A stretch of DNA of 45,909 nt from assembly GCA_038209745.1 (NCBI GenBank), contig JBBQXJ010000035.1:1-45909 (forward strand), given 5' to 3'. Below the pieces are notes generated by a model, which worked only from the letters and a program-made list of their open reading frames with translations, did not search any database and was not told where the DNA came from. Positions within the stretch are counted from its first letter, which is position 1. Every line of letters starts with the position of its first letter. Shown here in pieces: positions 10,720 to 43,699 of the stretch. The stretch is from Verrucomicrobiota bacterium. GTDB lineage: Bacteria > Verrucomicrobiota > Verrucomicrobiia > Limisphaerales > CANJSG01. Position numbers and translations under genes: made by a program.

Positions 10720-11544
10720 TCAATCAGCGAGCCTGAACCTAACGGGCACTTCGACGTCGGACTCCACCGGGTTCAAACCCGCCCGCGCCGGTTGGAACTC
10801 CCACGTTCGGACAGCAGTCAAAGCGGCTTCGTCGAGGATCTGTATTCCGGAGCTGTGCTTGAGTTCAACCCTAAGAGGACGCCCTTGGGCGCTGACTTTG
10901 ACATCCAGCAGAACCACCCCTTCCTGTCTTCTTCGCCGAGCCGCCGCTGGATAGGGCAGCTCCGGATTCTTCCGGTAGTCGGGCTCTGCCCGGAGACTGA
11001 ACATCGGCTTGGAGGATACGGCCTCCGTTCCGGGATTCGCAGAGCCATGCTGCTCTGGAACCGTTGTTGGCCCCGGCCCAGTGGCCGCTACAGCGGTCGA
11101 CTTCGCGGCGGCGGATGCTTCCGCCATCGGGGAAGGTCCAGCCGCTTCCAAGTTTTTGGCGCGGGGTGCGGAATCGCTCGGCTCCGCAAGTGGCTCCAGA
11201 GGCGTTGGCCCAGGCTTTTCGGTCGGCAATGGTTCCGTTGGGGGCCGGGGTTCAACCGGCGGTTGCACCGGCTCGGAGGCGGGTTCCTCCGGGGCTGTTG
11301 TCGCCGATGCCGTCTGTTGCAGCGCCTCCGAGGCCGACGGCTCGCGGGGCCCAACCTGGGTGTCCGGACGAGGATCGACGACCGTCTCCTCGGGGATCGT
11401 CACGAGTGTCAGTTCAATGGACTGCTCCCGATCACTGGACGGCAATTGAACGGCGCGAAGGCCCGTCCCGAACCACAGGACGGCTCCCGACACGGCGATG
11501 TGCACGCCCAGTGAGACGCCGACACTGAAGCGAAGCGGAGTCAC
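10720..11544 (-). CDS. tonB: Energy transducer TonB
   Basis: N-terminal TM with SLGVH (S-x3-H), Pro/Glu-rich linker, C-terminal YPAAARRRRQEGVVLL..SSG..LDEAALTAVRTWEFQPA..VPVRFRL. Confidence 0.92.
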   Translation of the reverse strand: MTPLRFSVGVSLGVHIAVSGAVLWFGTGLRAVQLPSSDREQSIELTLVTIPEETVVDPRPDTQVGPREPSASEALQQTASATTAPEEPASEPVQPPVEPRPPTEPLPTEKPGPTPLEPLAEPSDSAPRAKNLEAAGPSPMAEASAAAKSTAVAATGPGPTTVPEQHGSANPGTEAVSSKPMFSLRAEPDYRKNPELPYPAAARRRRQEGVVLLDVKVSAQGRPLRVELKHSSGIQILDEAALTAVRTWEFQPARAGLNPVESDVEVPVRFRLAD

Positions 11545-11559
11545 CTTGGCCTCCGTTCG

Positions 11560-14190
11560 TCAAAACCGCGCGGTCAATGCCAAGCGGGCCTGGATCGGCT
11601 CGACGGGATGGAAGTGGATCTGGGACTCGATCGGGTCGCCCGGTCGCACCCGCGACTCGTAGGCGTAGTCGATGTCGTGGTCGCGCCGGTTGAGGAGGTT
11701 GAAAACATCGGCGGTCAGCGTCCACGTCTTGTTGAGGCGGTAGCCGACCTGGGCACCGAGCAGGATGGTTTCGCCGGAGCGGACGCTGTTGTCCGCCACC
11801 AACGGGCGCGGGCCGAAGTAACGGAGGCGCAGGCTCCCGAAAAGACCCGAGTCGGCAGAGTAGCTGATTCCGGCGGCAACGACGCTCTCGATGGATCCCG
11901 GGATGTGGTCGCCGGCCGGATCCTCGCCGCGGAACTGCGCGTGCGACATCGAGTAGTCCAGGTCCAGGGAAAAATGCTTCGTGATGCTGTAGAAGTTGGC
12001 CCACTCGAAGCCGTAGCGCCGGCTGGGGCGGCCCGCTTCCGTGGTGCCCGCGTCGCCCGCGAAGACCAGCTCGGAATCGATGTCGAGCCACCAGACCGAG
12101 AGGGTGCTCTGGAGGGCGTCCACTGCGAGCGTGCGCACGCCGATTTCCGCTCCGTAGGTCCGGACGAGCGGATCGGCGCGCTGGATGGGATTGCCGGCCG
12201 CGTCCAGCGTGCTGCCGGTCACCGGATCCACCCTCGTGGTCGCACCGCGTCCGTCGTTGCTGTGGAAGCCGAGCCCGCCCTGGAGGTAGATCTCCGTCTT
12301 CGCCCACGGACCAAAGATCAGGCTGAGCTTGGGACTGGCGATGGCGGCGAGACGGTCACCCGAATTCTCGGTGCGGGTGCTTTGCACGTCGTAGCGGTAG
12401 AAGTCGCCGCGCAGGCCCGCGACGCTGCGAAGCTTCGTCGCCCATTGGATCCGGTTTTCGTAGTAGGGCCCCACGCTGGTCTGGAGGGTTTCGTCCTGTC
12501 GAACGGTCGCCGGGAGCGGGGATCCGTCGGATGCGTCGACCTTGTCCACGCGTTGCCGTCGGAAGGTGTTGAAGAGCCCGTTTTGGATGGCGTCGTTGCG
12601 GAACTGGAGTCCGAAGGTGTTCTCCACTTCGCGCTCGAACCAGGTGTTGTAGAGCGTGTGGCTGGCGATGAGTCCGGCGGCCCAGCGCATGTCGGTCTGT
12701 TCGAATTGATCGCCGCGATTGGTGTCGGTGAGGAAGTAGGTGAAGTCCGAGAAGAGATCGAGATCGTAGTAGAAGCCGTAGGCCATGACCTTGGTGGCGG
12801 ACGCCGGCCCTGCCCGGTTCCATTCGGCCTGGAGGCTGTATCGCTGGGAGTTGCCGCCGGTCGTGCCGTCGAGCGATCCGAAGAGCGGCACGAGTCCGGC
12901 GTCCACGGCACTGGCCGCGATTTGATCGCTCGAATCCCATTGACCGTGGTAGCCGCGGGCGGTGATGGAGAAACCGTTGGCCGAGTCCCCTTGGCTGTAG
13001 GTCAACACGCCGTTAAATTTCCGGTAGTTGTCCGAAGTCTCCCACGGACCATCGTAATGGTAGGCCTCCACTCCGTAGAGCAGGTTTCCTTGGCCGACTT
13101 TCGGCGAAGCGGCATAGACGGCGCGGCCGTAGCCATACATGCCGCCTTCGACAATCGCCAGGCTCTGCGGGAGCACGCTGAAAGATTCCAGATGTGCGGC
13201 CCCGGCCGACGCGAAGTCGCCGTTCTCCGCATAGTAGACGCCCTTCTGGTAGTTCACCCGCTGCACCAGTTCCGGGATGACGATGTTCAAGTCCGTGTAG
13301 CCCTGCCCGTGGCCGTGGGTCGGCAGGTTCACCGGCATGCCGTCGAGCGACGTGGCGAAGTCCGTGCCGTGGTCGAGATTGAATCCGCGCAGGAAATACT
13401 GGTTCGCCTTACCGCCGCCCGCGTGCTGCGTGATGATCACGCCGGGCACGGATTCCAGGATCTCCCCGACGCGGGCCGTCGGTCGGGCCTCCAATTGCTT
13501 CGCCCCGACAGTGCCCTGTGTGGCCGAATCCGCGATGCCGACGAGACTGTCCGCGCGGCCCTCCACCACGACCTCGGGCAGGCGCGTCGTCGTGTTCGTT
13601 CTGTTCTCCTTATTGGATGCGAGCGGATTCGTCTCCTGCTGGGCCAGCGCCGAACTTCCCATGCAACAGGCGATGGCCAATGCGGCTGCGCGCGCCACCA
13701 CCAGACCCGTCGCGTGCAGCAACAGGGTCGCAACCAAGAATCCGCAGCCGAAGGTCAGCAAGCTGACCGTTCCAGGCATCTCGGCTCCATGCGCGAAGCC
13801 GTGGAAGAACCCGAAAAAACCGACGACCGCCGAACCGATGAAGGCGTTCAACCGGACGCGCCTGGCCACGAGAAACACGAACACCACGACGGACAAGGAG
13901 ATCGCCAACTCGACGCCGGGCAGCCCGACTCCCATCGCGCCCGCCAACCCTCCCAGGCTCATCACGCCGACGAACGTCGTGGGGATGAGCCACAACGCCC
14001 TTCCCTTTTGCTGGGCCGCCCAGATACCCACCGCCAGCATCGCCAGCAGATGGTCCCAGCCGTGCAGCGGATGGCTGAACCCGTCCTGCCACCCGTTCAT
14101 CGAACCTCCCGCCGAATGGGCCTGGGCCAAGGTTGGAAAAAGGAAGAAGACCCCCAGCAGAACGAACATTTTTAGAAGGCTTGATTTCAT
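11560..14190 (-). CDS. HupE/UreJ-family Ni/Co permease fused to a TonB-dependent receptor
   Basis: Residues 25-165: GFSHPLHGWDHLLAM, FHGFAHGAE, LLH (HupE/UreJ). From residue 184: EVVVEG TonB-box-like, plug QHAGGGKANQYFLRGFNLDHGTD..HGHGQGY, barrel ending ..ARF. One open frame of 876 aa. Confidence 0.9.
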   Translation of the reverse strand: MKSSLLKMFVLLGVFFLFPTLAQAHSAGGSMNGWQDGFSHPLHGWDHLLAMLAVGIWAAQQKGRALWLIPTTFVGVMSLGGLAGAMGVGLPGVELAISLSVVVFVFLVARRVRLNAFIGSAVVGFFGFFHGFAHGAEMPGTVSLLTFGCGFLVATLLLHATGLVVARAAALAIACCMGSSALAQQETNPLASNKENRTNTTTRLPEVVVEGRADSLVGIADSATQGTVGAKQLEARPTARVGEILESVPGVIITQHAGGGKANQYFLRGFNLDHGTDFATSLDGMPVNLPTHGHGQGYTDLNIVIPELVQRVNYQKGVYYAENGDFASAGAAHLESFSVLPQSLAIVEGGMYGYGRAVYAASPKVGQGNLLYGVEAYHYDGPWETSDNYRKFNGVLTYSQGDSANGFSITARGYHGQWDSSDQIAASAVDAGLVPLFGSLDGTTGGNSQRYSLQAEWNRAGPASATKVMAYGFYYDLDLFSDFTYFLTDTNRGDQFEQTDMRWAAGLIASHTLYNTWFEREVENTFGLQFRNDAIQNGLFNTFRRQRVDKVDASDGSPLPATVRQDETLQTSVGPYYENRIQWATKLRSVAGLRGDFYRYDVQSTRTENSGDRLAAIASPKLSLIFGPWAKTEIYLQGGLGFHSNDGRGATTRVDPVTGSTLDAAGNPIQRADPLVRTYGAEIGVRTLAVDALQSTLSVWWLDIDSELVFAGDAGTTEAGRPSRRYGFEWANFYSITKHFSLDLDYSMSHAQFRGEDPAGDHIPGSIESVVAAGISYSADSGLFGSLRLRYFGPRPLVADNSVRSGETILLGAQVGYRLNKTWTLTADVFNLLNRRDHDIDYAYESRVRPGDPIESQIHFHPVEPIQARLALTARF

Positions 14191-14207
14191 GTCGATCTAA
14201 TCCCGCG

Positions 14208-14369
14208 GCGAACGCCGGTTGGCGTTCGCGGTTTCAGTTTTGAAGGCGGCAAAAGCCATCCGGTTGAACGCAGCCACGCGCTTTCGCCCGCCATCGCTGC
14301 CACAGGTGCCTCGACCTGATTTCTAGCCGGTCCGTGGATCACGGCAAACCGGTTCTTGAAATCATGTCG
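14208..14369 (-). promoter_or_regulatory. Structured 5' region upstream of the HupE-receptor gene
   Basis: Imperfect 58-nt hairpin 14312-14369 and perfect 9-bp hairpin 14208-14229; function not established. Confidence 0.4.
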
Positions 14370-14568: not shown

Positions 14569-15918
14569 TCAGGTCGTCTCCAGCCCTCGCATCGTGCCGG
14601 TGGCCGAGGCGAATTTGTCCGCCTCGATCCCCATCCGCTGGAGCATGGAGACGAAGAGATTGGGCAGCGGGTAGTTGCGCTCCAGGTCGAAGCCGAGGTG
14701 CTGGCCGTGTTTGAATCCACCGCCGGCGAAGATCACCGGGAGGTTCGTGGTCACGTGGGTGTTGGCGTTCCCCAGGTTCGAGCCATACAGAATCATGGTG
14801 CGATCCAGCACCGTCGCGTCGCCTTCGCGGACGGCCTTCAACTCGGTGAACAGGTTTCCGAGCAGCTTCATGTGCCATTCGTCGATGGACTGGAGCTGCT
14901 CCAGCTTTTCCTTGGACCGTCCGTGGTGAGACAGGTTGTGGTAGCCATCGCTGGTCTTGTGTCCGTCGAACTCCAACGCGGGGGAATTGACGCTGTCGAG
15001 CAGCAGCGCGATCGAACGGGTGGAATCGGTCTCGAAGGCGAGCCGGGCAAGGTCATACATGAGGCGGACCTTCTCCATGTATTCGCGGGGGCTCTCGGGA
15101 TCGAGCGGGACGCTGGCGGAGACGACGGGCTTGGGCTTCCTCTCCCATTCGCGGGACATCTGCATGCGCTGCTCCAGCTCGCGGACGCTGGTGAAGTATT
15201 GATCCAGCCTCTCGCGGTCGTGGCTGCCGACCCGGCGCTGGAGGCTCTGGGCCTGGTCCGCGACCGCGTCGAGAATGCTCTGCCCGAGCTCGATCTTCCG
15301 GACCTGCTCGTCCATCTCCGTCGGCGAACCCTGGACGAACAGCCGACGGAACACGTCGGACGCCTTCTCTTCGCAGGGGATCAAGACTCCGGAACCGGTC
15401 CACGCGAGGCTGCGCATCCCCTGCTCGACGTTGACGCCGAGATTGAGCGACGGGAACCGCGTGAGATGGCCGATCCGCTCGCCAATGAACTGGTCGAGGG
15501 AGATCGTGTTCTTGAAACCGCCCCGGCCGGGATGCGGCGCGGCGGTGAGGAAGCAATTGTCCGCCGGATGGCCGCCGTCGACGTCGGGATGCGAGACGCC
15601 GCTGAAGACGGTGAATTCATCGCGGTGGTCCTTCAGCTGTTCAAGGTAGGGCGAGAGCGCGTAGTCGCGGCCGGTCGCCCGGGGAAAGAACATGTCGGGC
15701 ACGAGCCCGAGGTTGTTGCAGATGGCGAGCATCCGCCGAGGCGTGGCTCCCACGTCCGTCGGGTCCGAGTTTTTGGCGGCGGCGGCGAAGACCGGGAACA
15801 TCGAGTCCAACATCGGCAACGCCAGCGCGATGCCCGCACCCCGGAGGAAGTGGCGGCGCGAGATGCCGCGGCCCGTGGCGATGAACGCCGAGGAGTTCTG
15901 TGAGGTTTGGGATGTCAT
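14569..15918 (-). CDS. DUF1552-family protein
   Basis: [23 protein letters not shown]-terminus, [40 protein letters not shown] motifs; follows DUF1592 gene. Confidence 0.92.
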
Positions 15919-15931
15919 GGAGCGGTTTCCT

Positions 15932-18499
15932 CTATTTGTTCAAGAACAGGTCGCTTTGCACGAGGCCATGGATCAATGACCGCACGCCGTAGCCTTCGCT
16001 TCGGACTTTCTGCAAAATCTTTTCCACTTCGGGCCGGTCCGAGAACCGGATCGGGGCGCCGGTGGCGTAGACCGTCAGCTGCCGCAGTAGGTTCCGCGCC
16101 AATTGATCGTCGTCCCGGACCAGGCACTGCTTGAGCTGCCGCACATCGGCGAATTTCTGCCCGTCCGGCAGTTCGCCGCTAGGATCCACCGGCTGGCCGA
16201 GGCCGAAGTGGAAGATCAGGCCGTTGTGTCCACTGCCCTTGACCGGCTCCACCTTGCCCACGGCCCGGTAACGGTCGCGCCAGCCACCCATGACATCGAA
16301 GCTCTCCAGGGCGAATCCGGCGGGGTCGATGTTGCGGTGGCAGGCGTTGCAGGTCTCCTGCGAACGATGCTTCGCGAGCTGTTCCCGGATGGTGGTGGCG
16401 CCCCGGATGTCGGGCTCGACGGCGGGCACGCTCGCGGGCGGCGGCGGCGGCGGACGGCCCAGGATCCGCCCCATGATCCAAGCACCGCGTTTCACGGGTG
16501 AAGTGGTGGTGCCGTTTGCCGTCACCTTCAGCACGCTGGCCTGGGTCATCAATCCACCGCGGACGCTGCCCGGCGGCAGCTGGACTTCGCGGATCGCCAC
16601 GCCGTCCACGCCGGGGATGCCATACAGCGTGGCCAGCCTCTCGTTCAACATGGCGAAGCCGGACTCCACCAAGTTGGTCACGTTCAGATTCCTCCTCACA
16701 AGTTGCCGGAAGAACTGCTGGGTCTCGTCGGTCATGGATTCGACCAGCAGATCGTCGAGCTGATAGTCGGGGTAGAGCTCGGTGTCGGGCGCGGTGTTGG
16801 CGATGCCGCGGAGATCGAGCCAATAGTCGAGGAACGACCGGACGAACCGCTCGGACTTCGGATCATCCAACAGCCGCTCGGTCTGGGACCGCAGCACCTC
16901 GGGCCGATGAAGCAGGCCGCGCTGCGCCATCTCACGCAGCGGCGCGTCGGGTTCGGAATCGATGAGGAAGTAGGACAGCCGTTCGGCCAGGGCCAGATCG
17001 TCGAGCCGACCCGGTTGATGTTCGTTCAAATAGAGAAACCCGGGCGAACAGAGCACCGCCGTGTAGCCCGCCAACATCGATTCCGTGAAGCCGTGCCCGC
17101 CCTTCATCGCTCCGGTGACGACGCCAAGAATCCGTTCCACGTCCGCATCCCTCGGCGGCACACGGTAGGCGTGCTGCATGAAGTTCTGCAGCAGCCGCTC
17201 CGCATCCCGCTCCGGATTCTTCGGGACGACCGAGACGCCTTCCCTGACCTTGGCCCGGCCGAAGCCGCGGACCTTGGGATCGTCCTCCATCGGCAGATCG
17301 CCGAAGAGCAGCTGCTGTCCCGCCGGCGGCCATTCATCGATCAAAGGCCCCTCGACGTCCATCCACTGGAAGGCCACGCCCGGCATTCCTTCCGGCGTCG
17401 TCAACGGATTCCGAAAATCCGGCGGGCGGGCCCGATGCAGCCGGGCGGCATCCGGCCGGACCGTCTCCCCGGCCAGCAGCCAGACGTCCATTTCCCGGAC
17501 CGTGGGATCGGCCCCGACATCGAAGCTGCCCAGCTTCCGGAGAATCCGCGGCGGCGTGTCGGAATAGATCGTCACCGGCTCCGCTCGCCGGCCCTTGGTC
17601 ACTTCCGTGAACTTGGGGTCGATCCAAAAACTGAAGCCCGAGAACCGCAGACGATAGCGGCCCGCCACCGGGGCGCGGAAGCGGCCGAAACGGATCTCGG
17701 TCGGTTCATAGGTGCTGACCACGACACCCATCGCCTCCTTGTTCTTTCGTTCGACGTCCCGGTTCTCGGGGCGTTTTGGATTCTCGGCCTCGGTCAGGTC
17801 GCGTTGCAGCTCCAGGCCGATCATCGGCCAAGTGCGGCGTTCCTTGGGACCGCCCAGTTTGATCGCTCCGAAGAATTCTCCCTGGTCCCACGCATAGAAA
17901 CGGTTCGTCGTCGTCTGGGGCCGCGCCACCTGCGGCGCCATCGCCGTTTGCAGCGCGAATTCCGCCGCGCCCAAATATCGCGCCATCTGCACATAGGAGA
18001 CGTCCAGCGCGTCGCCGACCTTGTTGAAGCCGTGGGCCACGGTGTCTTCCGGCAGGAAATCCTTCACCTCCAGATACGGGACTCCCAGGAGATCGCGGAG
18101 CGTGTCCTCGTATTCGTAGCGGTTCAGCCGGCGCTGCACCGCGCGGCCCTGTTCTGCGGTCTGCGTGCGCTCGAAGCGCACCAGGTCGTCGGTCAGTTCG
18201 TGGGTGAACCGTCCCCGCTCCTCCGGCGCCGGCTGGCTCTTCTTCTTCGGCGGCGGCATTTCGCCGGAGGAAACTTTGTCGTGCACCGCGACCCAGGTCT
18301 CAAATTCCTTCGGGGACGCGAGGTCGAACTTCAGGGCTGTTAGGTCGAGACCGCCCTTCTTGCCGTCGGCGTCGTGGCAATCGAAGCAGTGTTCCTCCAG
18401 AAAGACACCCACGGGCTTCGGCACCGCCGCTTCGACGCCTCCCCCCCACGCGCAACCCACGAAGGCTAGGAACCAATACAACTGTGGTGAAGGCTTCAT
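15932..18499 (-). CDS. DUF1592/DUF1588-family planctomycete-type cytochrome c domain protein
   Basis: Probable start ATG 18499; CFDCH and CNACH heme motifs, [44 protein letters not shown]. Confidence 0.92.
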
Positions 18500-18544
18500 C
18501 AGGGCTGCCACTAAAAGAATCTCCGACCCCGGAAACATCAAGTC

Positions 18545-27851: not shown

Positions 27852-27948
27852 AAGGAGGATCACGCCATGACGCTTCCAAACCATTTCCACAGATCCAAAA
27901 AGAGATCCAGTCCCCGATCCGCGGGTCACGTGTTCAACTAAGAAGACC

Positions 27949-29214
27949 ATGGATCTCGCCCGCCCCGACATCGCCCGCCGCAAGAAACGCCAACGGATCA
28001 TCGGGTCCGTCGTGGCCGTCGTGATTCTAGCCGCCCTCACCGTCGGTTTCTCCCGGCTGAAGCCCGCCGCCCCGAGCGTGGAAAAAGGCTCTGTCTGGAC
28101 CGACATCGTCAAGCGCGGCCAGATGCTCCGCCAGGTTCGCGGCAACGGAACCCTCGTGCCGGAGCAGATCCAGTTCGTGCAGTCCGAGACCGACGGCCGG
28201 GTCGAGCGCATCCTCGTCAAACCCGGAGCCCAGGTCGAAGCCGACACCGTTCTGATGGAGCTCAGCAACGCCGAGCTGAAGCAGGCCGTCTTCGACGCGG
28301 GGTTCGAGGTGAAGATCGGCGAGGCGCAGCTCGTCCGGCTCAAGGTCCAGCTGAAGAGCGACAAGCTTTCGCAGAAAGCCGCGCTCGCCACCTTGAAGTC
28401 GGATGCGGAACAGGGCCGCATCATCGCCGCCGCGGACGAATCGCTTTTCAAAGCCGGACTCATTCCGGCGCTGGTGGCCCGCCAGTCTCGCTCCAAGGCG
28501 GATGATCTCATCGGGCGCGTGGCGATCGAGGAAGAGCGGCTCACGATCGGCGACGATTCGGCCGAAGCCCAGATCGCCGCGTCCGAGGCCACTCTCGACA
28601 AGACCCGCGCGCTGCTGGCTCTGAAGGAACGGCAACTGGCCGCGCTCCACGTCCGGGCCGGCATCGACGGCGTGCTCCAGCAGATCGGCGACGTGCAGAC
28701 CCTCCAGGTCGGCCAACGGGTCAGCCCCAGCGCCACCCTCGCCAAGATCGTCCAGCCGACCCACCTGAAGGCGGAGATCAAGATTCCGGAAACCCAGGCC
28801 AAGGACGTCTTGATCGGCCAACGAGCCGAGATCGACACCCGCAACGGCGTCATTCCCGGCACCGTCGTCCGGGTCGATCCCTCCGTCGTCAACGGCACGG
28901 TCACCGTGGACGTCAAACTGGACGGCCCCCTGCCCCGCGGCGCCCGGCCCGATCTCAGCGTCGACGGCACCATCGAGCTCGAACGCCTCGACGACGTGCT
29001 CTACATCGGCCGGCCGGTGCAGGGCCAGACCGACAGCACCATCGGCTTGTTCAGGCTGGTCGAAGAAGGCCACGCCGCCGTCCGGGTTCCGGTCAAACTG
29101 GGCCGCAGTTCCGTCAGCACCATCGAAGTCCTCCAAGGTCTCGAAGTCGGTGACCAGGTCATCCTCTCAGACATGTCCGCCTGGGACAGCCACGACCGGG
29201 TCCGCCTCAACTGA
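27949..29214 (+). CDS. Periplasmic adaptor subunit (MacA/HlyD family)
   Basis: Basic N-terminus and TM, VKRGQMLRQVRGNGTLVP, GRVERILVKPG lipoyl half, helical hairpin, VKLG..IEVLQGLEVGDQVI. Confidence 0.93.
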   Translation: MDLARPDIARRKKRQRIIGSVVAVVILAALTVGFSRLKPAAPSVEKGSVWTDIVKRGQMLRQVRGNGTLVPEQIQFVQSETDGRVERILVKPGAQVEADTVLMELSNAELKQAVFDAGFEVKIGEAQLVRLKVQLKSDKLSQKAALATLKSDAEQGRIIAAADESLFKAGLIPALVARQSRSKADDLIGRVAIEEERLTIGDDSAEAQIAASEATLDKTRALLALKERQLAALHVRAGIDGVLQQIGDVQTLQVGQRVSPSATLAKIVQPTHLKAEIKIPETQAKDVLIGQRAEIDTRNGVIPGTVVRVDPSVVNGTVTVDVKLDGPLPRGARPDLSVDGTIELERLDDVLYIGRPVQGQTDSTIGLFRLVEEGHAAVRVPVKLGRSSVSTIEVLQGLEVGDQVILSDMSAWDSHDRVRLN

Positions 29215-29943: not shown

Positions 29944-30000
29944 CGGGCCGGCTGTTGTTTCCCCAACCCGCAACCGACCACGAACAACCAGCAACCCGCC

Positions 30001-32430
30001 ATGAACGACCTCAAGTTCGCCTTCCGCCAGTTGTTGAAGAACCCCGGCTTCACCGCCGTGGCCGTGCTCACGCTGGCGCTCGGCATCGGAGCGACGACAG
30101 CCATCTTCAGCGTGGTCTATGGCGTGCTGATCAATCCGTATCCCTACGCCCACCCCGAGCTGATCTGGGCACCGGGGGTGCAGAACGCCAAGAACCAGCA
30201 GATCATGCGGCCGTTTCGCAAGGACGAGTTCGACCCGATGGCCGCCTTGCCGGCGTTCTCCGACTTGATGGGAACGTCGCCCGCCGGTGCGTTGCTGACC
30301 GGCGAATTCGCGGCCGAGAACGTGACCGCAGCGCGCCTGACTCAAAACGCGTTCCAGTTCCTGGGAGTGTCGCCGGTGCTGGGGCGGACGTTTGGACCCG
30401 GCGACTTTTCCGCTTCGGGTGAACCGCAACCGGTCACGGTCATCAGCTTCAAGCTCTGGCAACGCCTCTTCGGCGGCGATCCCAAGGCACTCGGCCGGAC
30501 GCTGCGGCTGGACGACCAGGTTTACACCATTGTCGGCGTGATGCCCTCGCGCTTCGGTTGGTGGACGAGCGACGGAGTCTGGTTGCCCATGTCCAGCACG
30601 CCGGGCGATCCCGGCCGCCTCTTTCCCATCGGCCGGCTCAAGCCAGGACTCGATTCTTCGGTGGCGCGACAACAGCTCCAATCGCTCGAGATCGAGCTGG
30701 CGAAGTCCAACCCCGACGGCTTCCCCAAGGAAACCTTCGAGGCGACCTTGACCAACTACCTGGACATCACGGCGGCCAGCGGAGAGATGCAGCGCGCGCT
30801 CCACATGCTTTTGGGCGCGGTCGCGTTTCTCCTGCTGATCGCCTGCGCGAACATCGCGAATCTCCAACTGGCCCGGGCCACCGGCCGGACGAAGGAGATG
30901 GCCATCCGCCTGGCCATCGGCGCGGGGCGAGGCCGGCTCGTCCGGCAACTGTTGACCGAAAGCGTCCTGCTGTCGGGCCTGGGAGGCGCCCTGGGACTCG
31001 CGTTCTCCGTGGCGCTCACCCGGCTGATCGTGGCGCTGATGCCCGACTTCTACGTTCCCAACGAAGCCCGCATCGAGGTCAACGGTCCGGTGCTCCTCTT
31101 CAGCGTGGCAATAGCCCTGGTCGCCGGCGTCGTCTTCGGTCTCGTGCCGGCGTTGCAGGCCACGCGCCCGAACCTGGCGGGTGCGCTGAAGGACGAGCGC
31201 GCGGCGACGGGGCCGGTCCGCGGCGGTGTCCTCCGCTCCACGTTGATCGTGGCCGAAATGGCGCTGTCCGTCGTCCTGCTGATCAGCGCGGGTTTGACCA
31301 TGCGGAGCTTCCTGGCGCTCCAGAACGTGGACCCTGGATTTCGTCCCGAGAACGCGGTCACCGCGGACGTGATGTTGCCGAAGAACCGCTACATGACGCT
31401 GGATCAACGCAACCGCTTCGCCCAGGAATTGCTCGAACGCATCGAACATGTCCCCGGGGTGCTGGCCGCGAACATCGGCAACGGAGGGATGCCTTTCGGT
31501 GGAGCCCAGTCCGGCTATTCGATCGACGGGCAAGCCGGCCCCGATGCCAAGCCGCTCACCTTGAACCTGGTCAGTCCGGGCTACCTGAAAACGCTCGGCA
31601 TCGCTCTTCGCCGTGGCCGCATGCTCGACCTTGACGACATCCGGCGCGGCGACCGGCTCACCGTGATCAACGAGGCAGCGGCGAAACTTTGGCCGGCGGG
31701 CGAAGATCCGATCGGCCGTCAAATCCATTTGGATCTATTGAAAGGATCGTTCGGCCCGGTCCTGATGCCGACCAACGGCGCTCCCGACCTCACGGTCGTC
31801 GGCATCTGCGCCGACACCCGCAACAACGGACTGGCCAGCGAATCCCTCCCGTCGGCGTTCGTTCCCTTCACCGTGGCGGCCCCTCCGGGTCGGACCCTGG
31901 CCGTCCGCTCACACGGCGATCCGGCGGCCCTCTTCAACGTGATTCGCGGAGAAGTGCGCGCCATGGATCCGCTGCTGCCTGTAAGCAACACGACGACGCT
32001 CGGGCGGACGATGTCGGAGCAGACCGCCCAACCCCGGTTCACGATGGCGCTTTTCAGCCTTTTCGCGGCGGTGGGGCTGGCCTTGGCCACCGTGGGACTG
32101 TTCAGCGTGCTGTCCTACCTGGTCACGCGGAGAACCCGGGAAATCGGCGTGCGCATGGCACTGGGCGCGCAGCGCGGCGACGTGCTCCGGCTCGTCCTCA
32201 AAGACGGCGGCCGGCTCGCCGGGCTTGGGATTGTCATCGGCGTGGTCGCCAGCCTCGGCGTCGCCCGCTTCGTCGGCAGCCAGGTGGACCTGTTCCACGT
32301 GAACCCGCTCGACCCCGTTTCGTTTGTGACGGTGATCGTGTTGCTGGGACTGGTCGCATTGGCCGCGTGCTGGTTCCCGGCCCATCGCGCCGCCTCGGTC
32401 AATCCCACGGAAGCGCTCCGCAGCGAATGA
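30001..32430 (+). CDS. Duplicated MacB/FtsX-type ABC permease 1 (ADOP-like)
   Basis: 809 aa; [42 protein letters not shown]-terminal ALRSE; internal duplication. Confidence 0.94.
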
Positions 32431-32452
32431 ACCTCAAACCAGGCTTTGAATC

Positions 32453-34900
32453 ATGAACGACCTGAAATTTGCCCTCCGCCAGTTGCTGAAGAACCCCGGC
32501 TTCACGGCCGTGGCCGTGCTCACCCTGGCGCTCGGCATCGGAGCGAACACCGCCATCTTCAGCGTCGTGGACAAGCTGCTGATGCGGCCGCTGCCCGTCA
32601 GGGAGCCACAACGGCTGGCCTTGCTTGGACAAGCGCATGACGCCGGCCCCGCAGACTACGACTTCACCTTTCCGACCTTCCGGGACTATCAGCGCCAGAA
32701 CACGGTCTTCAGCCAATTGTCTGCGACGGCGGAAACGAGCGTCGGACTTGGAACCGGCGGGGCAACGGAACGCCAGCGGGCGATGCTCGTCTCGGGAAAC
32801 TACTTCGCCATGCTCGGCGTGAACGCGGCGCTCGGTCGCACCTTCGCGCCGGATGAAGGCGTCGAGATCGACGATGCCCCGGTGGCCGTGCTCAGCCACG
32901 GACTTTGGCAACGGCGCTTTGGCGCGGACCCGCAGGTCATCGGCCGCACCGTCACGGTCAATGGCCATCCGTTCACGGTCATCGGCGTGGCGCCACGCGA
33001 GTTCACCGGCACCACGCGCAGCACGGCACCCGACCTCTATCTGCCCATCACGATGTTCGGGCAGCTCACCAATGATCGCCCCGGTGATGAAAACCCGCTG
33101 GCGTCCCGCTACTACAGCTGGCACGCGATCATGGGCCGGTTGAAGGACGGCGTGACGCCTGCCCAGGCAAAGGCCGCAATGGGTCTGCTCGCCCTGCAGG
33201 CCCATGCCGCAGGAATTCCGAACACTTCCACGAACCTTGTGATCCTGCCCGGGTCACAGGGTTTCACGCACGACCTGCGCGATGCACGGCTGCCGATGAA
33301 CCTGTTGCTGGGCACCTCGGCGCTCGTGCTCCTCATTGCGTGCGCGAATCTGGCGAACCTCCAGCTCGCTCGGGCCACGGGCCGCGCGCGCGAATTCGCC
33401 ATCCGTCTTGCGCTCGGCGCGGGACGCAGGCGCGTCATCCGCGAACTGCTCACCGAAAGCATGCTGCTCGCGTTGGGGGGCGGCCTGCTGGGCATGCTTG
33501 TGGCGGGGTGGCTCGTGGACGTGCTCGGCCGGTTCCGTCCGGCCAATACCAGCTTCGAGATCGGCGGCGGTCTCGATTCGCGGGTGCTGTTGTTCGCCTT
33601 TGGCGCGTCGGTGTTCACGGGAATTCTCTTTGGCCTTGCACCGGCCTGGCGGGCGAGCCGTCCGCAACTCGTGCCGGAACTGAAAGGTGGCGGAGGCACG
33701 ACCGGTTCACGCACCGGCCGATGGAATATCCGCAGCGCGCTGGTCGTGCTGCAGGTCGCGCTGTCGTTGCTGGTGCTCGTGAGCGCGGGCCTGTGCGTGC
33801 GCAGCCTGCAGAATCTCCAGCATCTCGATCCCGGCTTTGAACCGTCGCGCCTGGTCCTGATGTCGTTCGACCTCGGGTTGAACAACTACTCGGGGCCGCA
33901 GGCGAAGGATTTCTACGACCGCCTGCTCGAACGCGTCCGGACGCTGCCCGGTGTCGAGGCGGCCAGTCTCGGGCGAAGCACCCCCCTGGATGGCGACCGG
34001 AGGATGATGAGTGTCCAACGCGTCGAGGGCTACGAGAACCAAGGCCAGGAGCGTCCAGCCGCCGACCTGGACATGGTTTCGCCCGACTTCTTCCGCGCCT
34101 ACGGCGTACCGCTGCTGGCCGGGCGCGACTTCAACGACACGGACGCCGCGAAAGGTGCAAACACCGTCATCATCAACGAAGCTTTCGTGCGCCGCTACTT
34201 GCCGGGACAGGACGCGCTGGGCAAACGGATCTACAACGGCTTCGGCCACGATCCGGACGAGGTGTGGGAGGTCGTCGGCGTCGTGCGAAGCGTCGCGTCG
34301 CGCCAGCTCGACCTGGCGCCGCAGCCGATGATGTTTCGCCCTTTGGTCCAGTGGCCGGACAAGGCTCTGACCTTGTCAGTCCGAACCGGCCTTGAACCCG
34401 TGGGCACCATCGCGTCGCTGCGCGAACTGGTGAAGTCGCTGGATGCGAACGTCCCGGCCTTCGGCGTGCGGACGCTGGCACAACAAAAGGACGTCTCACT
34501 CGCGCTCCAGCGCATGGCGGCGTCGCTGCTGGGCGGCTTCGGTGTGCTTGCGCTGCTGCTGGCGGCGCTCGGCATCTACGGGGTGCTCGCCTATTCGGTC
34601 AGCCGGCGCACCCGCGAGATCGGTGTCCGCATGGCGCTCGGAGCACAGATTGCCGACGTGCTCCGGCTTGTCCTGCGACAGGGACTCGGCCTGGTCGGCG
34701 TTGGTTTGGCTCTGGGCTTGGCCGGTGCGTTCGGCGCGACGCGCCTGCTGCGAGGTTTTCTTTACGAAGTCCAACCGCTCGACCCGCTGACCTTCGTCAG
34801 CGTGGTCGCGCTGCTCGCGATCGTCGCGATGTTCGCCTGCTGGCTTCCCGCACGCCGTGCCGCCCGAGTCGATCCGATGATGGCGTTGAGAACCGAGTGA
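32453..34900 (+). CDS. Duplicated ABC permease 2 (ADOP-like)
   Basis: 815 aa; same motif set; ends [17 protein letters not shown]. Confidence 0.94.
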
Positions 34901-34937
34901 AACCGGGCAACGGACCACAAACGAAGGACAACGGACC
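34830..34937 (+). repeat. 108-bp junction repeat, copy 1
   Basis: 107/108 identical to 37374-37481; covers the permease 2 3' end and most of the spacer. Confidence 0.95.
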
Positions 34938-34945
34938 TCCCAGCC

Positions 34946-37444
<2,499 letters not shown>

Positions 37445-37488
37445 AACCGGGCAACTGACCACAAACGAAGGACAACGGACCACCCACC

Positions 37489-39891
37489 ATGAACGACCTC
37501 AAATTGGCCTTCCGCCAGTTGCTGAAAAACAAGGGCTTCGCGCTGGTCGCCATCCTGATCCTGGGCGTGGGCATGGCGGCGAACACGGCCGTGTTCGGCC
37601 TGGTGGACGCCGCTTTGTATCGTCCGCTGGGTGGCGTGGGGAAACCGGATGAATTGGTGGCGCTGGAGGTGCCGAACAGGGGCGCCACCTTTTCTCGGGA
37701 TTCCCTCGATGTGCTGCGTGAATCCAAGGGAACCTTCCAGGACTTCGCCGGCTATGATCGGGGCTCGACGCTGCTCTTCGCCGGCAACGCGCAGACCCGG
37801 GTCCAGACCGAGTTCGTCTCGGGAAACTTCTTCACCCTGCTCGGGGTGAAACCCTTCCTGGGGCGGTTGCTCGACGAATCGGACCGGAGCGCGCCGTTGG
37901 TTGTCATCAGCCATCGCCTGTGGCGCACGCGCTTCGACTCCGCTCGGGACATTGTGGGGCACAAGCTGGAGGTCAACGGGGAGCCGTTCACCATCGTCGG
38001 CGTCGCCGACGACGGGTTCGGAGGGATGCAGCCGCTGGCGCCGGTGAGCGCCTGGCTCTCCTGCGAGCTGCCCAAGCCGCACCTTCCCGACTGGAACCAG
38101 AAACGCTCCACCCGATGGCTGGCCGTCTTCGGCCGGATGAAGCCAGGAGTCGCCCTCGCGGCGGCCCGTGATTCCTTGTTGCCGTTGCAATCGCAGGTGC
38201 TCGAACCGTGGATGCTCCAGAACAATGGCTCCCTCCAGGCCACACCCTGCGGCCGTGGGGCGATACCGGGCGCCAGCGGACAAAGCGGTGTGCGGCTGAT
38301 CTCGTTGTTCCTCTTCACCGTGGTGGTGCTGGTGCTGGCGGTGGCGTGTGCGAACCTCGCAAGCCTGTTGTTGAGCCGGGGATTGAACCGCCGGCGCGAG
38401 ATCGCCATCCGCATGGCGCTGGGCGCCCCTCGTTGGCTATTGATCCGGCAGCTCCTCGTCGAGACGCTCCTGTTGTCCCTCATGGGCGGACTGGGCGGGC
38501 TGGTGCTCTCCACCTGGGGTGTCCGTCTGGCCACCTTGGCACTGCCCAAGATCTCGCGGAGCTACGACATCGATCTCTCTCTGCGCTACGACTGGCGCAT
38601 CATCGGCTTCACTCTCGCGGCCTCGTTGTTGGTGGCCTTGGTCTGCGGCTTGATCCCGGCCTGGCGCGGCACCCAGGTGGACTGCCAAGCGGCCTTGAAG
38701 GATGAAACCCTCGGGATCGGACCGAGGCGGCGGTGGTTCGAGCTGCGGAACCTTCTGATCGTGTCGCAGGTCGCCGTCTCCGTGGCGCTGCTGGTCGGGG
38801 GCGGGGTGATGCTGCGAAGCCTGAGTCAGATCCAGAACCAGAAATTCGCCTTCGACTACGACCACTGCGTCGTCACCGCCCTCTGGGACAAGGACGCGGC
38901 CACGTCGGACGCCGAACACGCGCGTATGCGCCGCGAGTTGCTGGAGTCCGCCCGGACGCTTCCCGGCGTGACCACCGCTGCGTTGGGCAACCATCCGCCC
39001 TTGGTCATGGGGACCAGGAGCACGTCGGTTTCCGATCCGCAGAACGGCAATTCTTCGGAGGCTTTGATCGGCGTGGTGACGCCGGGATTCTTCGAGACGT
39101 TGAAGATCCCCGTGGTTCTCGGCCGAGACTTCTCCGTGCGGGATGTCGGCCATTCGAACGATGTCGTGGTCGTGAATGAGTCGCTCGCGGCCAACCTGTG
39201 GCCCGGCCAGAATCCGCTGGGGCGCTCCATCCACTACGACCGCGACACTGACTATCAAGTGATCGGGGTGGTGCGGGACGCCTGCTACTGGTCCGCGACG
39301 GACACCACGAGACCGGGGTTCTATCTTTGCGAGGGCGAACTGACCCGGGACGGCGGGGGCTACCTGATCGTCCGAACCGCCCAGGACACCCGTCCGTTGC
39401 GGGGGCTGGTGGCTTCCCTCGTTCGCCGGGCGGACCCCGGACATGAACAGCCCTACGTCGCGGACTATGCCGACTTCGTCGCGGTGGGGCTGATCGCCCA
39501 GCGGACCGCCGCCTGGGTGCTGGGGCTGGCCTCGGCCATCGGTCTGGCGCTGGTCGCAGCGGGACTCTACGGCGTGTTGAGCTACCACATCGCGCAACGC
39601 ACCCGCGAGATCGGCATCCGGATGGCGCTCGGGGCGGGCCGAGGTCATGTGATGCGCAGCATGTTGTGGCGCGGCATCTCGCTGGTCGCCATCGGACTGG
39701 TCATCGGAAGCGCCGTCGGCGTGTTCGGGGCGAGCCACATGGACAAGGTGCTGTTCAAGACATCGCCGGCCGATCCAGCGACTCTTCTCGGTGTCTGTGT
39801 GTTGATGACCGGAGCCGCCCTGCTGGCCTGCTGGCTGCCCGCACGCCGTGCCGCCCGAGTCGATCCGATGGTGGCATTGAGATCCGAATGA
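37489..39891 (+). CDS. Duplicated ABC permease 4 (ADOP-like)
   Basis: 800 aa; [14 protein letters not shown] start, VACANLASLL, RTREIGIRMALGA, ends VDPMVALRSE. Confidence 0.94.
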   Translation: MNDLKLAFRQLLKNKGFALVAILILGVGMAANTAVFGLVDAALYRPLGGVGKPDELVALEVPNRGATFSRDSLDVLRESKGTFQDFAGYDRGSTLLFAGNAQTRVQTEFVSGNFFTLLGVKPFLGRLLDESDRSAPLVVISHRLWRTRFDSARDIVGHKLEVNGEPFTIVGVADDGFGGMQPLAPVSAWLSCELPKPHLPDWNQKRSTRWLAVFGRMKPGVALAAARDSLLPLQSQVLEPWMLQNNGSLQATPCGRGAIPGASGQSGVRLISLFLFTVVVLVLAVACANLASLLLSRGLNRRREIAIRMALGAPRWLLIRQLLVETLLLSLMGGLGGLVLSTWGVRLATLALPKISRSYDIDLSLRYDWRIIGFTLAASLLVALVCGLIPAWRGTQVDCQAALKDETLGIGPRRRWFELRNLLIVSQVAVSVALLVGGGVMLRSLSQIQNQKFAFDYDHCVVTALWDKDAATSDAEHARMRRELLESARTLPGVTTAALGNHPPLVMGTRSTSVSDPQNGNSSEALIGVVTPGFFETLKIPVVLGRDFSVRDVGHSNDVVVVNESLAANLWPGQNPLGRSIHYDRDTDYQVIGVVRDACYWSATDTTRPGFYLCEGELTRDGGGYLIVRTAQDTRPLRGLVASLVRRADPGHEQPYVADYADFVAVGLIAQRTAAWVLGLASAIGLALVAAGLYGVLSYHIAQRTREIGIRMALGAGRGHVMRSMLWRGISLVAIGLVIGSAVGVFGASHMDKVLFKTSPADPATLLGVCVLMTGAALLACWLPARRAARVDPMVALRSE

Positions 39892-39931
39892 CGCCCCGCA
39901 ACGGACCCCTGACAACTTCCCCCCATCCCCA

Positions 39932-40594
39932 ATGATCAAGCTGCTCAACATCGAGAAAAGTTTTCCCACCCGCCCCAGCCCAACCTACGTGCTGCGGCAG
40001 ATCACGCTCGACCTGGAAGAAGGCGATTTCGTCACCATCATGGGACCCAGCGGCGCCGGGAAATCGACCCTTCTCAGCCTGCTCGGCCTCTACGACCACA
40101 CGTGGGAAGGCGAATACTGGCTCCACGGTCAGCCGGTCCATTCGATGAACGGAAAGGAACGCGCGGCCCTCAACAAGAAGCACGTCGGCTTCGTCTTCCA
40201 GCAGTTCCATCTCCTCGAAGACCTGACCGTCGGCGAGAACCTCGACATCCCCCTCTCGTATCGCGACGTCAGGAAGTCCGAACGCCAAGCCCTCGTGGCC
40301 GACACGCTCGACCGTTTCGGCATCGTCGCGAAGAAGGACCTCTTCCCCAACCAGCTCTCCGGCGGCCAGCAACAGCTCGTCGCCGTGGCCCGCGCCGTCA
40401 TCGCCAAACCTTCGCTCCTGCTGGCCGACGAGCCCACCGGCAATCTCCACTCCGACCAGGGCCGCGCGATCATGGAGCTCTTCAAGCGGCTGAACGACGA
40501 AGGCACCACCATCGTCCAGGTCAGCCATTCCGAGACCAACGCCGCCTACGGCAACCGCATCATCCGTCTCCGCGACGGCTGGCTGGAGAAATAA
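39932..40594 (+). CDS. ABC transporter ATP-binding protein 2
   Basis: GPSGAGKS, FVFQQFHL, LSGGQQQLVA, LLADEPTGNLH, VSHS. Confidence 0.95.
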   Translation: MIKLLNIEKSFPTRPSPTYVLRQITLDLEEGDFVTIMGPSGAGKSTLLSLLGLYDHTWEGEYWLHGQPVHSMNGKERAALNKKHVGFVFQQFHLLEDLTVGENLDIPLSYRDVRKSERQALVADTLDRFGIVAKKDLFPNQLSGGQQQLVAVARAVIAKPSLLLADEPTGNLHSDQGRAIMELFKRLNDEGTTIVQVSHSETNAAYGNRIIRLRDGWLEK

Positions 40595-40684
40595 GGAGAA
40601 GCACGAAACCCGCAGGCCAAAGGCCGAATGAATTCCGGACCACGAACCACACAACAGATCAACCTCCCCCAACCGCAAAACCTC

Positions 40685-41178: not shown

Positions 41179-41244
41179 CGCCTGACGGCTCTCTCGCGTA
41201 AGAGGCGCCAATCCAGCCCAAGCCACGGACCACCGACCAAAAAC

Positions 41245-43674: not shown

Positions 43675-43699
43675 ACGACAAACCCTTATCGGTCAAGCC

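Follow-up and report, generated by a model that had tools for sequence, protein, structure and literature searches.

How can one gene supply two proteins that belong to two different membranes? This question is raised by 11560..14190 on the minus strand of the window, by which we mean the whole 45,909-nucleotide stretch of Verrucomicrobiota DNA that was analysed. According to the ORF listing and the translation, this interval is a single 876-aa frame without interruption, encoding in order a signal peptide, a HupE/UreJ domain, a short signal-peptide-like helix ending in ALA|Q, the plug of a TonB-dependent receptor (TBDR) and its barrel. The HupE/UreJ and TBDR halves each come from well-known families, and their encoding by one gene would be an unusual build for an uptake route across two membranes. 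A first-pass annotation of this DNA had described the single frame and proposed that the last HupE helix doubles as the signal of the receptor, signal peptidase I releasing two proteins. The frame was borne out, and the residue-level landmarks of that annotation were all found in the translation: the N-terminal signal AQA|H25, the basic loops QQKGR, ARRVR and AR, the junction RAAALAIACCMGSSALA-QQ (ALA being residues 181-183, nt 13642-13650), a TonB-box-like segment (RLPEVVVEG, 202-210), a His-rich plug (THGHGQGY, 291-298) and a barrel ending in Phe, F876 being the C-terminal residue. The features of the chain and of the adjoining gene are as follows.

14119..14190, minus strand: N-terminal signal peptide (residues 1-24), predicted to be cut at AQA|H25; read from the sequence, A(H/Q)A|H being kept at the N-termini of fused relatives
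13702..14118, minus strand: HupE/UreJ core, residues 25-163; Pfam PF04955 and AF2 helices
13642..13701, minus strand: junction helix, residues 164-183 (VVAR-AAALAIACCM-GSSALA), at the position of HupE TM6; conservation in 82 sequences and 35 unfused orthologues
13597..13641, minus strand: polar linker, residues 184-198, the would-be N-terminal tail of the mature receptor; low AF2 pLDDT and variable length
13561..13596, minus strand: TonB-box-like segment, residues 199-210 (TTTRLPEVVVEG); position and sequence only
13198..13512, minus strand: TBDR plug, residues 227-331; PF07715, 57.2 bits against a cut-off of 23.9
11563..13032, minus strand: TBDR beta-barrel, residues 387-876, ending in F876; PF00593, 75.4 bits against a cut-off of 27 (match 387-832)
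10720..11544, minus strand: tonB; Pfam TonB_C, 77.9 bits, starting 15 nt past the receptor stop codon with GGAGG ahead of it

The frame is not an assembly artefact, since contigs of four independent metagenome runs (4/4, from four studies) cross the junction with substitutions only and no indels, so that the missed stop or frameshift against which the annotation had cautioned did not appear. One contig (X2 record 17) covers 11400-14305, and three others (X1 record 5, X5 record 31 and X14 record 11) bridge 13642-13650.

The HupE/UreJ domain named in the annotation matched PF04955 (HupE_UreJ) over residues 16-171 with 161.7 bits (cut-off 23). This match covers profile positions 4-159 of 179 and thus lacks the last 20. 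In the excerpted text of an earlier study, HupE proteins are described as having an HPxxGxDH signature at the first helix and six transmembrane helices (PMC7689651). The signature is present here as HPLHGWDH at residues 40-47 and is kept in the consensus of alignment A1. Cleavage at AQA|H25 would expose the N-terminal His typical of HupE. The AF2 model contains five clear transmembrane helices (45-61, 65-85, 93-110, 116-136 and 144-163), and the basic loops after helices 1, 3 and 5 agree with the positive-inside rule. The position of the sixth helix is occupied by a 17-residue signal-peptide-like segment, which AF2 merges with helix 5 at low confidence. Two lone HupE proteins that we read end in TM5, a basic loop and TM6; the cytoplasmic turn before the last helix has ~10 residues in these, compared to ~3 (VAR) before the junction helix.

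In the receptor half, the TonB-box-like RLPEVVVEG is conserved and starts 18 residues past Q184; in alignment A1, R212 and four His residues of the plug (H256, H274, H292 and H294) are invariant, and L204, V209 and G211 almost so. The AF2 model, with a mean pLDDT of 85, shows a 22-strand barrel with a plug fold, and F876 is kept in at least 90% of alignment A1. This conserved C-terminal Phe and the modelled 22-strand TBDT fold mark the receptor part as a protein made for the outer membrane. The nearest Foldseek matches to the model were PqqU (9c4o, E 5e-35) and YncD (6v81, E 5e-33), with a TM-score of 0.82 on the target and 19-20% identity, and the best NCBIfam match reached 65.7 bits, below its cut-off of 223.5. 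By these comparisons no characterised transporter is more than a distant relative of this family, which, with its four invariant plug His, would gain a candidate substrate class.

We then asked what lies between the two halves. The junction helix is shaped like a Sec signal peptide, with a predicted signal peptidase I site at A183|Q184. Its conservation was read in a junction alignment of 82 sequences, which contains the window's own protein, the 5'-truncated P0008 and the unfused P0101 by mistake, and leaves out the HupE-bearing P0097, P0107 and P0111. R167 is present in 77/82 and is followed by ~10 uncharged or hydrophobic residues, small residues (G/S) at -6/-5 (-6 is G in 56/82), and then by the cleavage region. 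Position -3 is A, V, T or S (61, 11, 3 and 3; 78/82), -1 is A or G (74 and 4; 78/82; V, L or M in 3/82) and +1 is Q in 73 and E in 5, so that the AxA junction of the annotation is indeed conserved. The segment thus has an internal n/h/c layout that obeys the -3/-1 rule, and both the anatomy and the rule are kept among relatives that are just 57-77% identical. Moreover, in 35 unfused orthologues the N-terminal signal peptide falls on this site of the alignment, with A at -1 in 30 and Q at +1 in 25. An example is unfused P0109, whose signal peptide reads MKSKQVR-TAVIGLVITCGL-ASFATA|Q and whose fused neighbour is P0009. In the AF2 model, residues 144-176 are drawn as one helix, with a pLDDT of ~65-70 dropping to 43, no hairpin fold-back, and values below 50 for residues 174-201; the N-in/C-out orientation that we infer for the junction helix hence draws on the charge distribution and on the analogy with lone HupEs.

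The linker flanking the junction is variable in sequence, unlike the -3/-1/+1 positions. From +1 to the TonB box it counts 1-27 residues (median 19, n=83), with 1 in P0113 and 4 in P0078. At this predicted length it is too short to span the periplasm and thereby tether an outer-membrane barrel to an inner-membrane helix.

Homologous fusions, for which the annotation had suggested a search, were found. The HupE+Plug+barrel architecture occurs in 83 of the best 120 database relatives, and a Plug domain was found in 110/120 among the long HupE-containing proteins listed. Across 401 genomes of the same order, the fused gene is complete in 11 and truncated at a contig end in 3. Fused proteins named by NCBI also come from Methylotuvimicrobium sp. 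KM1, Methylomicrobium sp. Wu6 and Methylobacter (Methylococcales). In the databases these proteins are called just 'TonB-dependent receptor' or 'HupE', and a full-text literature search returned no inner-membrane transporter and outer-membrane beta-barrel made from one chain; supplements of papers might list such fusions. By its recurrence among relatives and by the independent contigs across the junction, the fusion is real and old.

The fused and unfused states switched repeatedly on the receptor tree. With 152 rows, and without 22/55 loci (9 lone HupE and 13 dropped by anchor and length filters), the label changes 17 times, at least 11 of these being forced by well-supported branches; in an IQ-TREE tree of 74 rows it changes 16 times, at least 8 forced. 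The trees come from FastTree and quick IQ-TREE runs, and some of their branches are long. An AU test rejected a single fused clade (delta lnL 358, p 1e-75). The outgroups are unfused, the basal ingroup lineages are fused and both forms interleave, the direction of change (fission rather than fusion) depending on the outgroup root. In two loci, L230 and L255, only a HupE remnant and the junction helix stand ahead of the receptor, suggesting that, after loss of HupE, the junction segment serves the receptor as its ordinary N-terminal signal peptide. Repeated loss of the HupE half thus amounts to a series of natural deletion mutants.

Taken together, this comparative evidence supports the main idea of the annotation. 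The n/h/c layout and the -3/-1 positions of the junction are conserved and align with unfused signal peptides, the fused and unfused states changed many times, and the linker is too short for a tether; for these reasons we consider it likely that signal peptidase I cuts after A183, yielding an inner-membrane HupE and an outer-membrane receptor. In the proposed course of events, the Sec machinery would insert the precursor into the inner membrane and signal peptidase I would make its first cut after A24, so that His would become the HupE N-terminus. The junction helix would stand in for the sixth HupE helix, passing from the cytoplasmic to the periplasmic side with its n/h/c layout, and a second cut would follow after A183, at the periplasmic end of this last hydrophobic helix. 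One product would be a HupE/UreJ permease of ~160 residues that stays in the inner membrane, and the other a TonB-dependent receptor of ~693 residues with a Q184 N-terminus. After its passage through the periplasm, the latter would be placed in the outer membrane by BAM, with energy coming from the TonB of the adjoining gene, and the two products would jointly import a divalent metal, Ni being the most likely and Co a possibility. The genome encodes BamA as well as three S26 signal peptidases. The data bear directly on the architecture and its broad conservation, on the homology and signal-peptide character of the junction, and on the repeated switches between fused and unfused; how the junction helix is oriented, that it is cut, where the products end up and what they carry are the parts of this model that we infer.

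The best surviving alternative, which we nevertheless regard as unlikely, is that the two products arise in translation: every receptor chain would begin at an internal start codon shortly before R167 (MVAR-AAALAIA...), with an ordinary short signal peptide, and the long frame would be two genes overlapping in frame. A start at the GTG codons of V164 and V165 would result in a textbook n-region, and all ten fused loci that were read (10/10) have at least one in-frame ATG, GTG or TTG within 10 codons upstream of the conserved Arg, so that a separately initiated receptor is possible. These codons, however, differ in position and kind, with no position conserved over the 10 loci; those nearest in L029 and L044 lie 9-10 codons upstream, within TM5, and chance supplies such codons in a Leu/Val/Met-rich helix. 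The window's candidate codons are preceded by no Shine-Dalgarno-like sequence, whereas tonB has GGAGG. Furthermore, in relatives down to 57% identity no stop codon has come up behind HupE, and ribosomes starting at the first ATG would still yield the whole chain, which would need to be cut for a normal HupE.

Less probable by about half is an uncut chain, in which HupE would keep the receptor domain tethered to it for good, as a periplasmic or trans-envelope appendage. The absence of a hairpin in the AF2 model would fit such a chain, and the N-terminal fusions of periplasmic metal-binding domains (Ang-1 and Ang-2) to HupE/UreJ-2 are described as uncleaved in the available text of their report (PMC12537917). 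Against this stand the 1-27 residues between the junction and the TonB box, the conservation of -3/-1/+1 and not of the linker, a barrel that retains its C-terminal Phe and the full TBDT fold, and the use of the same segment as an N-terminal signal peptide by unfused orthologues.

If the chain is cut, another enzyme might do so, for example lipoprotein signal peptidase at one Cys of LAIACC, giving a receptor lipoprotein; we hold this to be very improbable. Cys is the commonest residue at column 175 (34/82) and LAC occurs in the signal peptide of many unfused orthologues, but the column is L, F or M in 41/82, and strain variants of the same gene, seen in independent contigs, have C175F or C176F. 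For both reasons LAIAC|C was rejected as a lipobox. The residues preceding the Cys presumably do not match a lipobox either, and the conserved features lie at -3/-1/+1 of ALA|Q.

Finally, an assembly or annotation artefact or a decaying pseudogene is hardly credible: the source is a metagenome-assembled genome in 140 contigs and the HupE parts are degenerate in a few relatives (P0097, P0107 and P0068), but four independent assemblies are free of indels, intact fused relatives number in the hundreds and invariant columns are distributed over both halves of the protein.

The cutting of one chain at an internal signal peptide, as in the reading that we prefer, has a bacterial precedent in the polyprotein FbcH. 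In Bradyrhizobium japonicum, FbcH is reportedly a polyprotein of cytochrome b and cytochrome c1, the cleavage of which is said to have been proven in work attributed to Thony-Meyer et al. in 1989 and 1991. There as here, a single ORF runs from a polytopic inner-membrane protein into an internal signal sequence, where a signal peptidase cut frees, or in our case would free, a second protein that faces the periplasm. Both FbcH products, however, stay in one inner-membrane complex, whereas the second product here would be a 22-strand barrel leaving the inner membrane; here the signal segment also takes the place of the last helix in the first protein, and cleavage is reportedly proven in FbcH and predicted in our case.

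The coupling of an outer-membrane step to a Ni/Co permease also has parallels. H. pylori FrpB4 is said to be a TonB-dependent transporter implicated in Ni/Co uptake. In Novosphingobium, a predicted Co-specific TBDT adjoins a NiCoT permease, as far as the excerpted text describes it (PMC7689651). In both cases an outer-membrane TonB-dependent step is genetically coupled to an inner-membrane Ni/Co permease, by separate genes there and by one gene here. HupE of R. leguminosarum and Synechocystis, as portrayed in the same excerpt (PMC7689651), shares with our protein PF04955, HPxxGxDH, a signal peptide followed by His, and a multi-helix inner-membrane topology. Unlike a lone HupE/UreJ, the chain described here has a Pfam match ending at 159/179, a basic loop shortened to VAR, and a sixth helix that is signal-peptide-like and runs on into a 693-residue receptor. 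The Ang-1/Ang-2-HupE/UreJ-2 'anglerase', in the accessible part of its description, likewise fuses extra metal-handling modules to a HupE-type permease, but the modules in question are soluble, sit on the N-terminal side and, as proposed, remain attached, and the permease is HupE_UreJ_2 (PF13795); neither an outer-membrane partner nor internal cleavage is proposed in that part of the text (PMC12537917).

If the cleavage holds, it would show that a helix spanning the membrane in a functional permease can at the same time be a cleavable signal peptide, that a co-translationally inserted membrane protein can bring a large barrel precursor to Sec in its wake, and that the ratio of two uptake steps can be fixed by gene fusion. 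With proteins named from two methanotroph strains among the carriers, cultures may offer a way to test the idea.

The genomic surroundings were examined for the metal. The tonB that the annotation had seen immediately downstream is confirmed by its TonB_C match, and a TonB-like gene lies directly downstream on the same strand in 12/55 other loci searched. Except for tonB, none of the window's neighbouring genes is metal-related, and neither a riboswitch nor an operator of known specificity came to light. The genome (92% complete) contains urease alpha and a NikR_C homologue, while NiFe hydrogenase, CobN and CbiC were not found in it. The Ni/Co assignment is taken from family membership only; the substrate metal is uncertain, with Ni favoured because urease and NikR are present.

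Upstream of the gene, an RNA element and a palindrome were recognised.

14261..14316, minus strand: conserved 5' leader RNA hairpin; found by eye, then with covariance model R1 (54.5 bits)
14208..14229, unstranded: perfect 9-4-9 inverted repeat GCGAACGCC-NNNN-GGCGTTCGC, between the leader and the start codon

The leader has the consensus AGCCACC-YGKGG-CAGCRAUGGCGG-[variable hairpin]-CCGUAGCUG and occurs upstream of genes of this receptor family, the window's copy being the most degenerate among those seen. Over 74 distinct copies, 93.9% of cells are paired and compensatory changes occur in 5 pairs, values reached in 0/500 shuffles. The hairpin is often followed by a stem and a U-run. A loose genome-wide DNA pattern retrieved the full motif in at least 6 of the fetched loci, a pattern too loose in that we estimate ~100 matches by chance. 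Within the window no Rfam match overlapped the leader at gathering thresholds, and a search of Rfam 15 gave no match at E<=1 over 41 kb (10 loci) nor at E<=10 over the window's leader. The leader is a candidate cis-regulatory element and provides a separate lead. It resembles known riboswitches as a conserved 5' UTR hairpin with compensatory changes that is common to functionally linked genes, and differs from them in lacking a matching Rfam 15 family.

The same leader stands on SugE/Gdx exporter genes and on genes of the deoxyhypusine-synthase family. SugE/Gdx is a classic guanidine-riboswitch target. Four classes of guanidine riboswitch have been mentioned (PMC11410670), and Ni-dependent guanidine-type hydrolases adjoin hupE elsewhere, according to the excerpted text of another study (PMC11399263). 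We considered a guanidine link for these two reasons, the leader shared with SugE/Gdx and the hydrolases next to hupE; no arginase-family gene was found in the genome, and the link therefore stays weak.

A joint reading of all these elements can be put forward tentatively, as possible rather than probable. One ORF would provide uptake across two membranes, the last helix of the permease being the Sec signal of the receptor and signal peptidase I giving equal amounts of both. Verrucomicrobiota and Methylococcales would have this ancient arrangement in common, and it would have come apart repeatedly wherever the permease half was lost. Control over the family would lie with a leader that resembles a riboswitch, belongs to no class in Rfam and also stands before SugE/Gdx genes and genes of the deoxyhypusine-synthase family, with Ni/Co, guanidine or a polyamine-like compound as candidate ligands.

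As for the 22-bp palindrome, a search of the 4.58-Mb genome that allowed up to 2 mismatches gave no second copy, and the 9 other fused loci read lack it upstream; it is a candidate hairpin or operator.

The gene was found to be a single open frame of 876 codons by both ORF listing and translation. Its features and those of its leader are as follows:

11560..14190, minus strand: HupE/UreJ permease, junction helix (residues 164-183) and TonB-dependent receptor (TBDR) in one chain
residues 16-171: HupE_UreJ (Pfam, 161.7 bits; the match stops at profile position 159 of 179)
residues 227-331: TBDR plug (Pfam)
residues 387-832: TBDR barrel (Pfam)
14261-14316, minus strand: leader motif in the 5' leader of the fused gene, recurring upstream of the receptor family with HupE fused or not

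Translation located every element that the first-pass annotation had listed: the AQA↓H25 signal cleavage, the HPLHGWDH signature, the basic loops after helices 1, 3 and 5, the junction RAAALAIACCMGSSALA-QQ with ALA at residues 181-183, the RLPEVVVEG and THGHGQGY segments and the C-terminal Phe. The tonB gene reported directly downstream is also present, as a TonB_C protein that begins 15 nt past the stop codon with GGAGG ahead of its start; no other metal-related neighbour was found among the window genes. Directly upstream of the leader are a DUF1552 (HXXSHH) gene and a DUF1592/DUF1588/DUF1585/DUF1587/DUF1595 PSCyt gene (14569-18541, minus strand). Six MacB_PCD + FtsX permease genes of ~810-850 aa each follow one another at 29944-45808 (plus strand), preceded by an HlyD-family gene (27871-29211).

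Near-identical copies of the stretch occur in 20 DNA runs, which come from 19 sediment and soil metagenome studies. One metagenome contig covers 11400-14305 of the window (X2 record 17), and the junction is bridged by three others (X1 record 5, X5 record 31 and X14 record 11). A missed stop or frameshift at the junction, raised earlier as a possible artefact, was not seen in contigs from four runs, which show substitutions only and 0 indels; the variants close to the junction are C175F, C176F, A169V and N193K.

The search for homologous fusions recovered HupE, Plug and barrel together in 83 of the 120 best relatives in the protein collection (57-99% identical, the window's own protein among them), the remaining 37 having the receptor part alone. 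With the HupE half as query among longer proteins, 443 matches were obtained at E ≤ 1e-10, and 110 of the best 120 carry a Plug domain, including proteins named by NCBI from Methylotuvimicrobium sp. KM1, Methylomicrobium sp. Wu6, Methylobacter sp. and an unclassified gammaproteobacterium. In the phylum sample (401 genomes) the fused gene was present only in the window's genome and the receptor alone in 17. In the same order (401 genomes) the fused gene was complete in 11 and cut by a contig end in three, a tally that takes in G708, a genome flagged unpublished, with a lone HupE match on which no claim rests. Within the genus, an unfused receptor, 62-66% identical, is present in five of the six remaining genomes. 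In several genomes (G169, G721, G550, G780 and G648) hupE is a separate gene no more than a few kb away from the receptor gene, and in another (G569) a second hupE adjoins the fused gene. No published description of a HupE-TBDR fusion, including its internal cleavage or its occurrence in methanotrophs, was found by full-text search; PMC12537917 describes N-terminal metal-binding domains, not receptors, fused to HupE/UreJ-2.

Conservation of the AxA junction was examined in an alignment of 121 proteins, the window's protein and its best 120 relatives. Counts were made on 82 sequences (the window's own, 79 more that match HupE in Pfam, the 5'-truncated P0008 and, through misclassification, the unfused P0101; the same classifier left out the HupE-bearing P0097, P0107 and P0111). 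They give A61, V11, T3 and S3 at -3, A74 and G4 at -1, and Q73 and E5 at +1; R167 is kept in 77 and -6 is G in 56. After TM5 the fused forms show R, about ten uncharged residues, G/S-G/S-x, A-x-A and Q, followed by a polar stretch variable in both sequence and length. We used Q at +1 simply as a conserved residue, because PMC5837995 states that the Q-rule of Bacteroidetes is specific to that phylum.

The N-terminal signal peptides of 35 unfused orthologues occupy the same alignment columns as the junction; 30 of these orthologues have A at -1 and 25 have Q at +1. This is illustrated by the unfused P0109, MKSKQVR-TAVIGLVITCGL-ASFATA↓Q, beside its fused neighbour P0009, ..ATAR-VAAMLLACLM-GGTAMA↓Q. 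In two lone HupE proteins encoded by other genomes, TM5 leads through a basic loop of roughly ten residues to a C-terminal sixth helix. Taken together, these indicate that the junction helix stands in the place of HupE TM6 but has the form of the receptor's signal peptide. Among high-scoring proteins with HupE-only Pfam matches (P0122-P0129, 471-551 aa, one named from Methylococcales), the two whose sequences were read, P0122 and P0124, have two HupE domains per chain, the second with its own signal peptide (..FPSFAHA↓HS), which may be another internal signal peptide behind HupE.

The mature N-terminus H25 would have to face the periplasm, and five helices from there would bring the VAR turn into the cytoplasm, consistent with the basic loops; with the turn on the cytoplasmic side, the junction helix would run N-in/C-out, as a signal peptide does. 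The hydrophobic core of this helix spans about ten residues and is followed by G/S and AxA. Under signal peptidase I rules, a short core with G/S and AxA is the classic cleavable layout, unlike a stable 20-residue anchor. Between the equivalent of Q184 and the TonB box, the relatives have 1-27 residues (median 19, n = 83; 1 in P0113 and 4 in P0078), a tether so short that the outer membrane is out of reach for an uncut chain. The receptor barrel keeps its C-terminal Phe and adopts a confident TBDT fold in the AF2 model, nearest to PqqU and YncD by structure search, and the genome carries genes for three S26 signal peptidases and a BamA. Given the predicted orientation, cleavable layout, short tether, outer-membrane-type barrel and the presence of these genes, cleavage after A183 is likely. 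Points against it are the AF2 model, in which residues 144-176 form one helix of falling confidence and 174-201 give nothing usable, the unusually tight turn from TM5 to the junction helix, and the bulky residue that stands at -1 in three of the 82 sequences.

A further point against is the presence of in-frame start codons near the junction in all ten loci read. The receptor may, less probably, be made from one of these instead; they hold no fixed position across the loci, and no Shine-Dalgarno sequence accompanies them in the window. A lipoprotein-type cut at the junction Cys residues is unlikely, since C175F and C176F replace them in strain variants and neither Cys is essential.

For the receptor part, a FastTree phylogeny was built from 152 rows, comprising 119 of the 121 proteins (without P0002 and P0100) and 33 of 55 loci (of the other 22, nine have lone HupE genes and 13 were removed by anchor and length filters). 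It requires 17 fused/unfused changes, at least 11 forced by well-supported branches; a quick IQ-TREE of 74 rows needs 16, at least eight forced. The AU test rejects a single grouping of all fused rows (delta lnL 358, p 1e-75). Rooting on unfused class- and phylum-level receptors places fused forms on the earliest ingroup branches, the basal all-fused group consisting of Methylococcales-named proteins and P0111. Because no fused form needs a gap at the junction in the alignment, the simplest history would be a single old fusion, after which the HupE half was lost many times, a reading that hinges on the root. After each loss, the junction helix would serve as an ordinary N-terminal signal peptide, and these losses are the closest approach to a functional test possible from sequence data. 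At two metagenome loci (L230, L255), a HupE TM4 remnant is joined straight to the junction helix before the receptor (..MMLVGFFAFVHGLVTSRLAAFVLACLFGSSAMA↓HQ), which looks like HupE loss in progress. Unfused orthologues such as P0071, P0074, P0077 and P0114 have signal peptides whose hydrophobic core is preceded by an unusually long, Arg-rich n-region of 25-45 residues, which may reflect over-extended start calls or be a relic of a lost HupE half.

HupE family members import Ni or Co according to PMC7689651, and PMC11399263 notes that hupE adjoins Ni-dependent ureohydrolase genes. Nickel is the better guess here, because the genome (92% complete) has genes for urease alpha and a NikR_C protein, searches of it for NiFe hydrogenase, CobN and CbiC gave no match, and an Rfam search gave no cobalamin riboswitch in the window. 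H256, H274, H292 and H294 are invariant in the aligned receptor plug; no close characterised relative of the receptor was found.

The leader motif is a conserved RNA hairpin with the consensus AGCCACC-YGKGG-CAGCRAUGGCGG-[variable hairpin]-CCGUAGCUG, often trailed by GGUGGC and a U-run, and a second hairpin, CCGGUCCG..GACCGG, often follows before the ribosome-binding site. It has no match in Rfam 15. A covariance-model search of 151 genomes from the order gave one copy in each of 18; the 14 strong matches precede a receptor or HupE-receptor gene (10), a deoxyhypusine-synthase-family (DS) gene (2) or a SugE/Gdx exporter (2). A metagenome scan yielded 62 loci, whose first downstream ORFs, classed via simple patterns and by eye rather than Pfam, are HupE(-receptor) in 18, receptor in ~24, DS-like in 6 and prepilin-like in 4, with 6 cut at a contig end and 4 unassigned (leader loci: L033-L035, L044, L047-L049, L067, L084, L094, L107, L177-L190, L195-L256). 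Across 74 distinct copies, in a model-fitted alignment where much of the sequence was set in advance by the scan pattern, 93.9% of proposed pairs hold, five of ten pairs show compensatory changes, and the observed values were reached in 0 of 500 shuffles. The motif is a candidate cis-regulatory element and may be a riboswitch. The window has the most degenerate copy. At L035/L181 (genome G523), a ~185-aa ORF without a Pfam match, with a hydrophobic N-terminus and a His-rich stretch (HVLIEHGGHGPAHVHFHGS), lies between leader and unfused receptor. After the window's leader, 18 nt upstream of the start codon, is a perfect 9-4-9 palindrome of 22 bp, GCGAACGCC-GGTT-GGCGTTCGC (14208-14229), which is the sole copy in the genome, is absent at the other fused loci read, and could be a hairpin or an operator.
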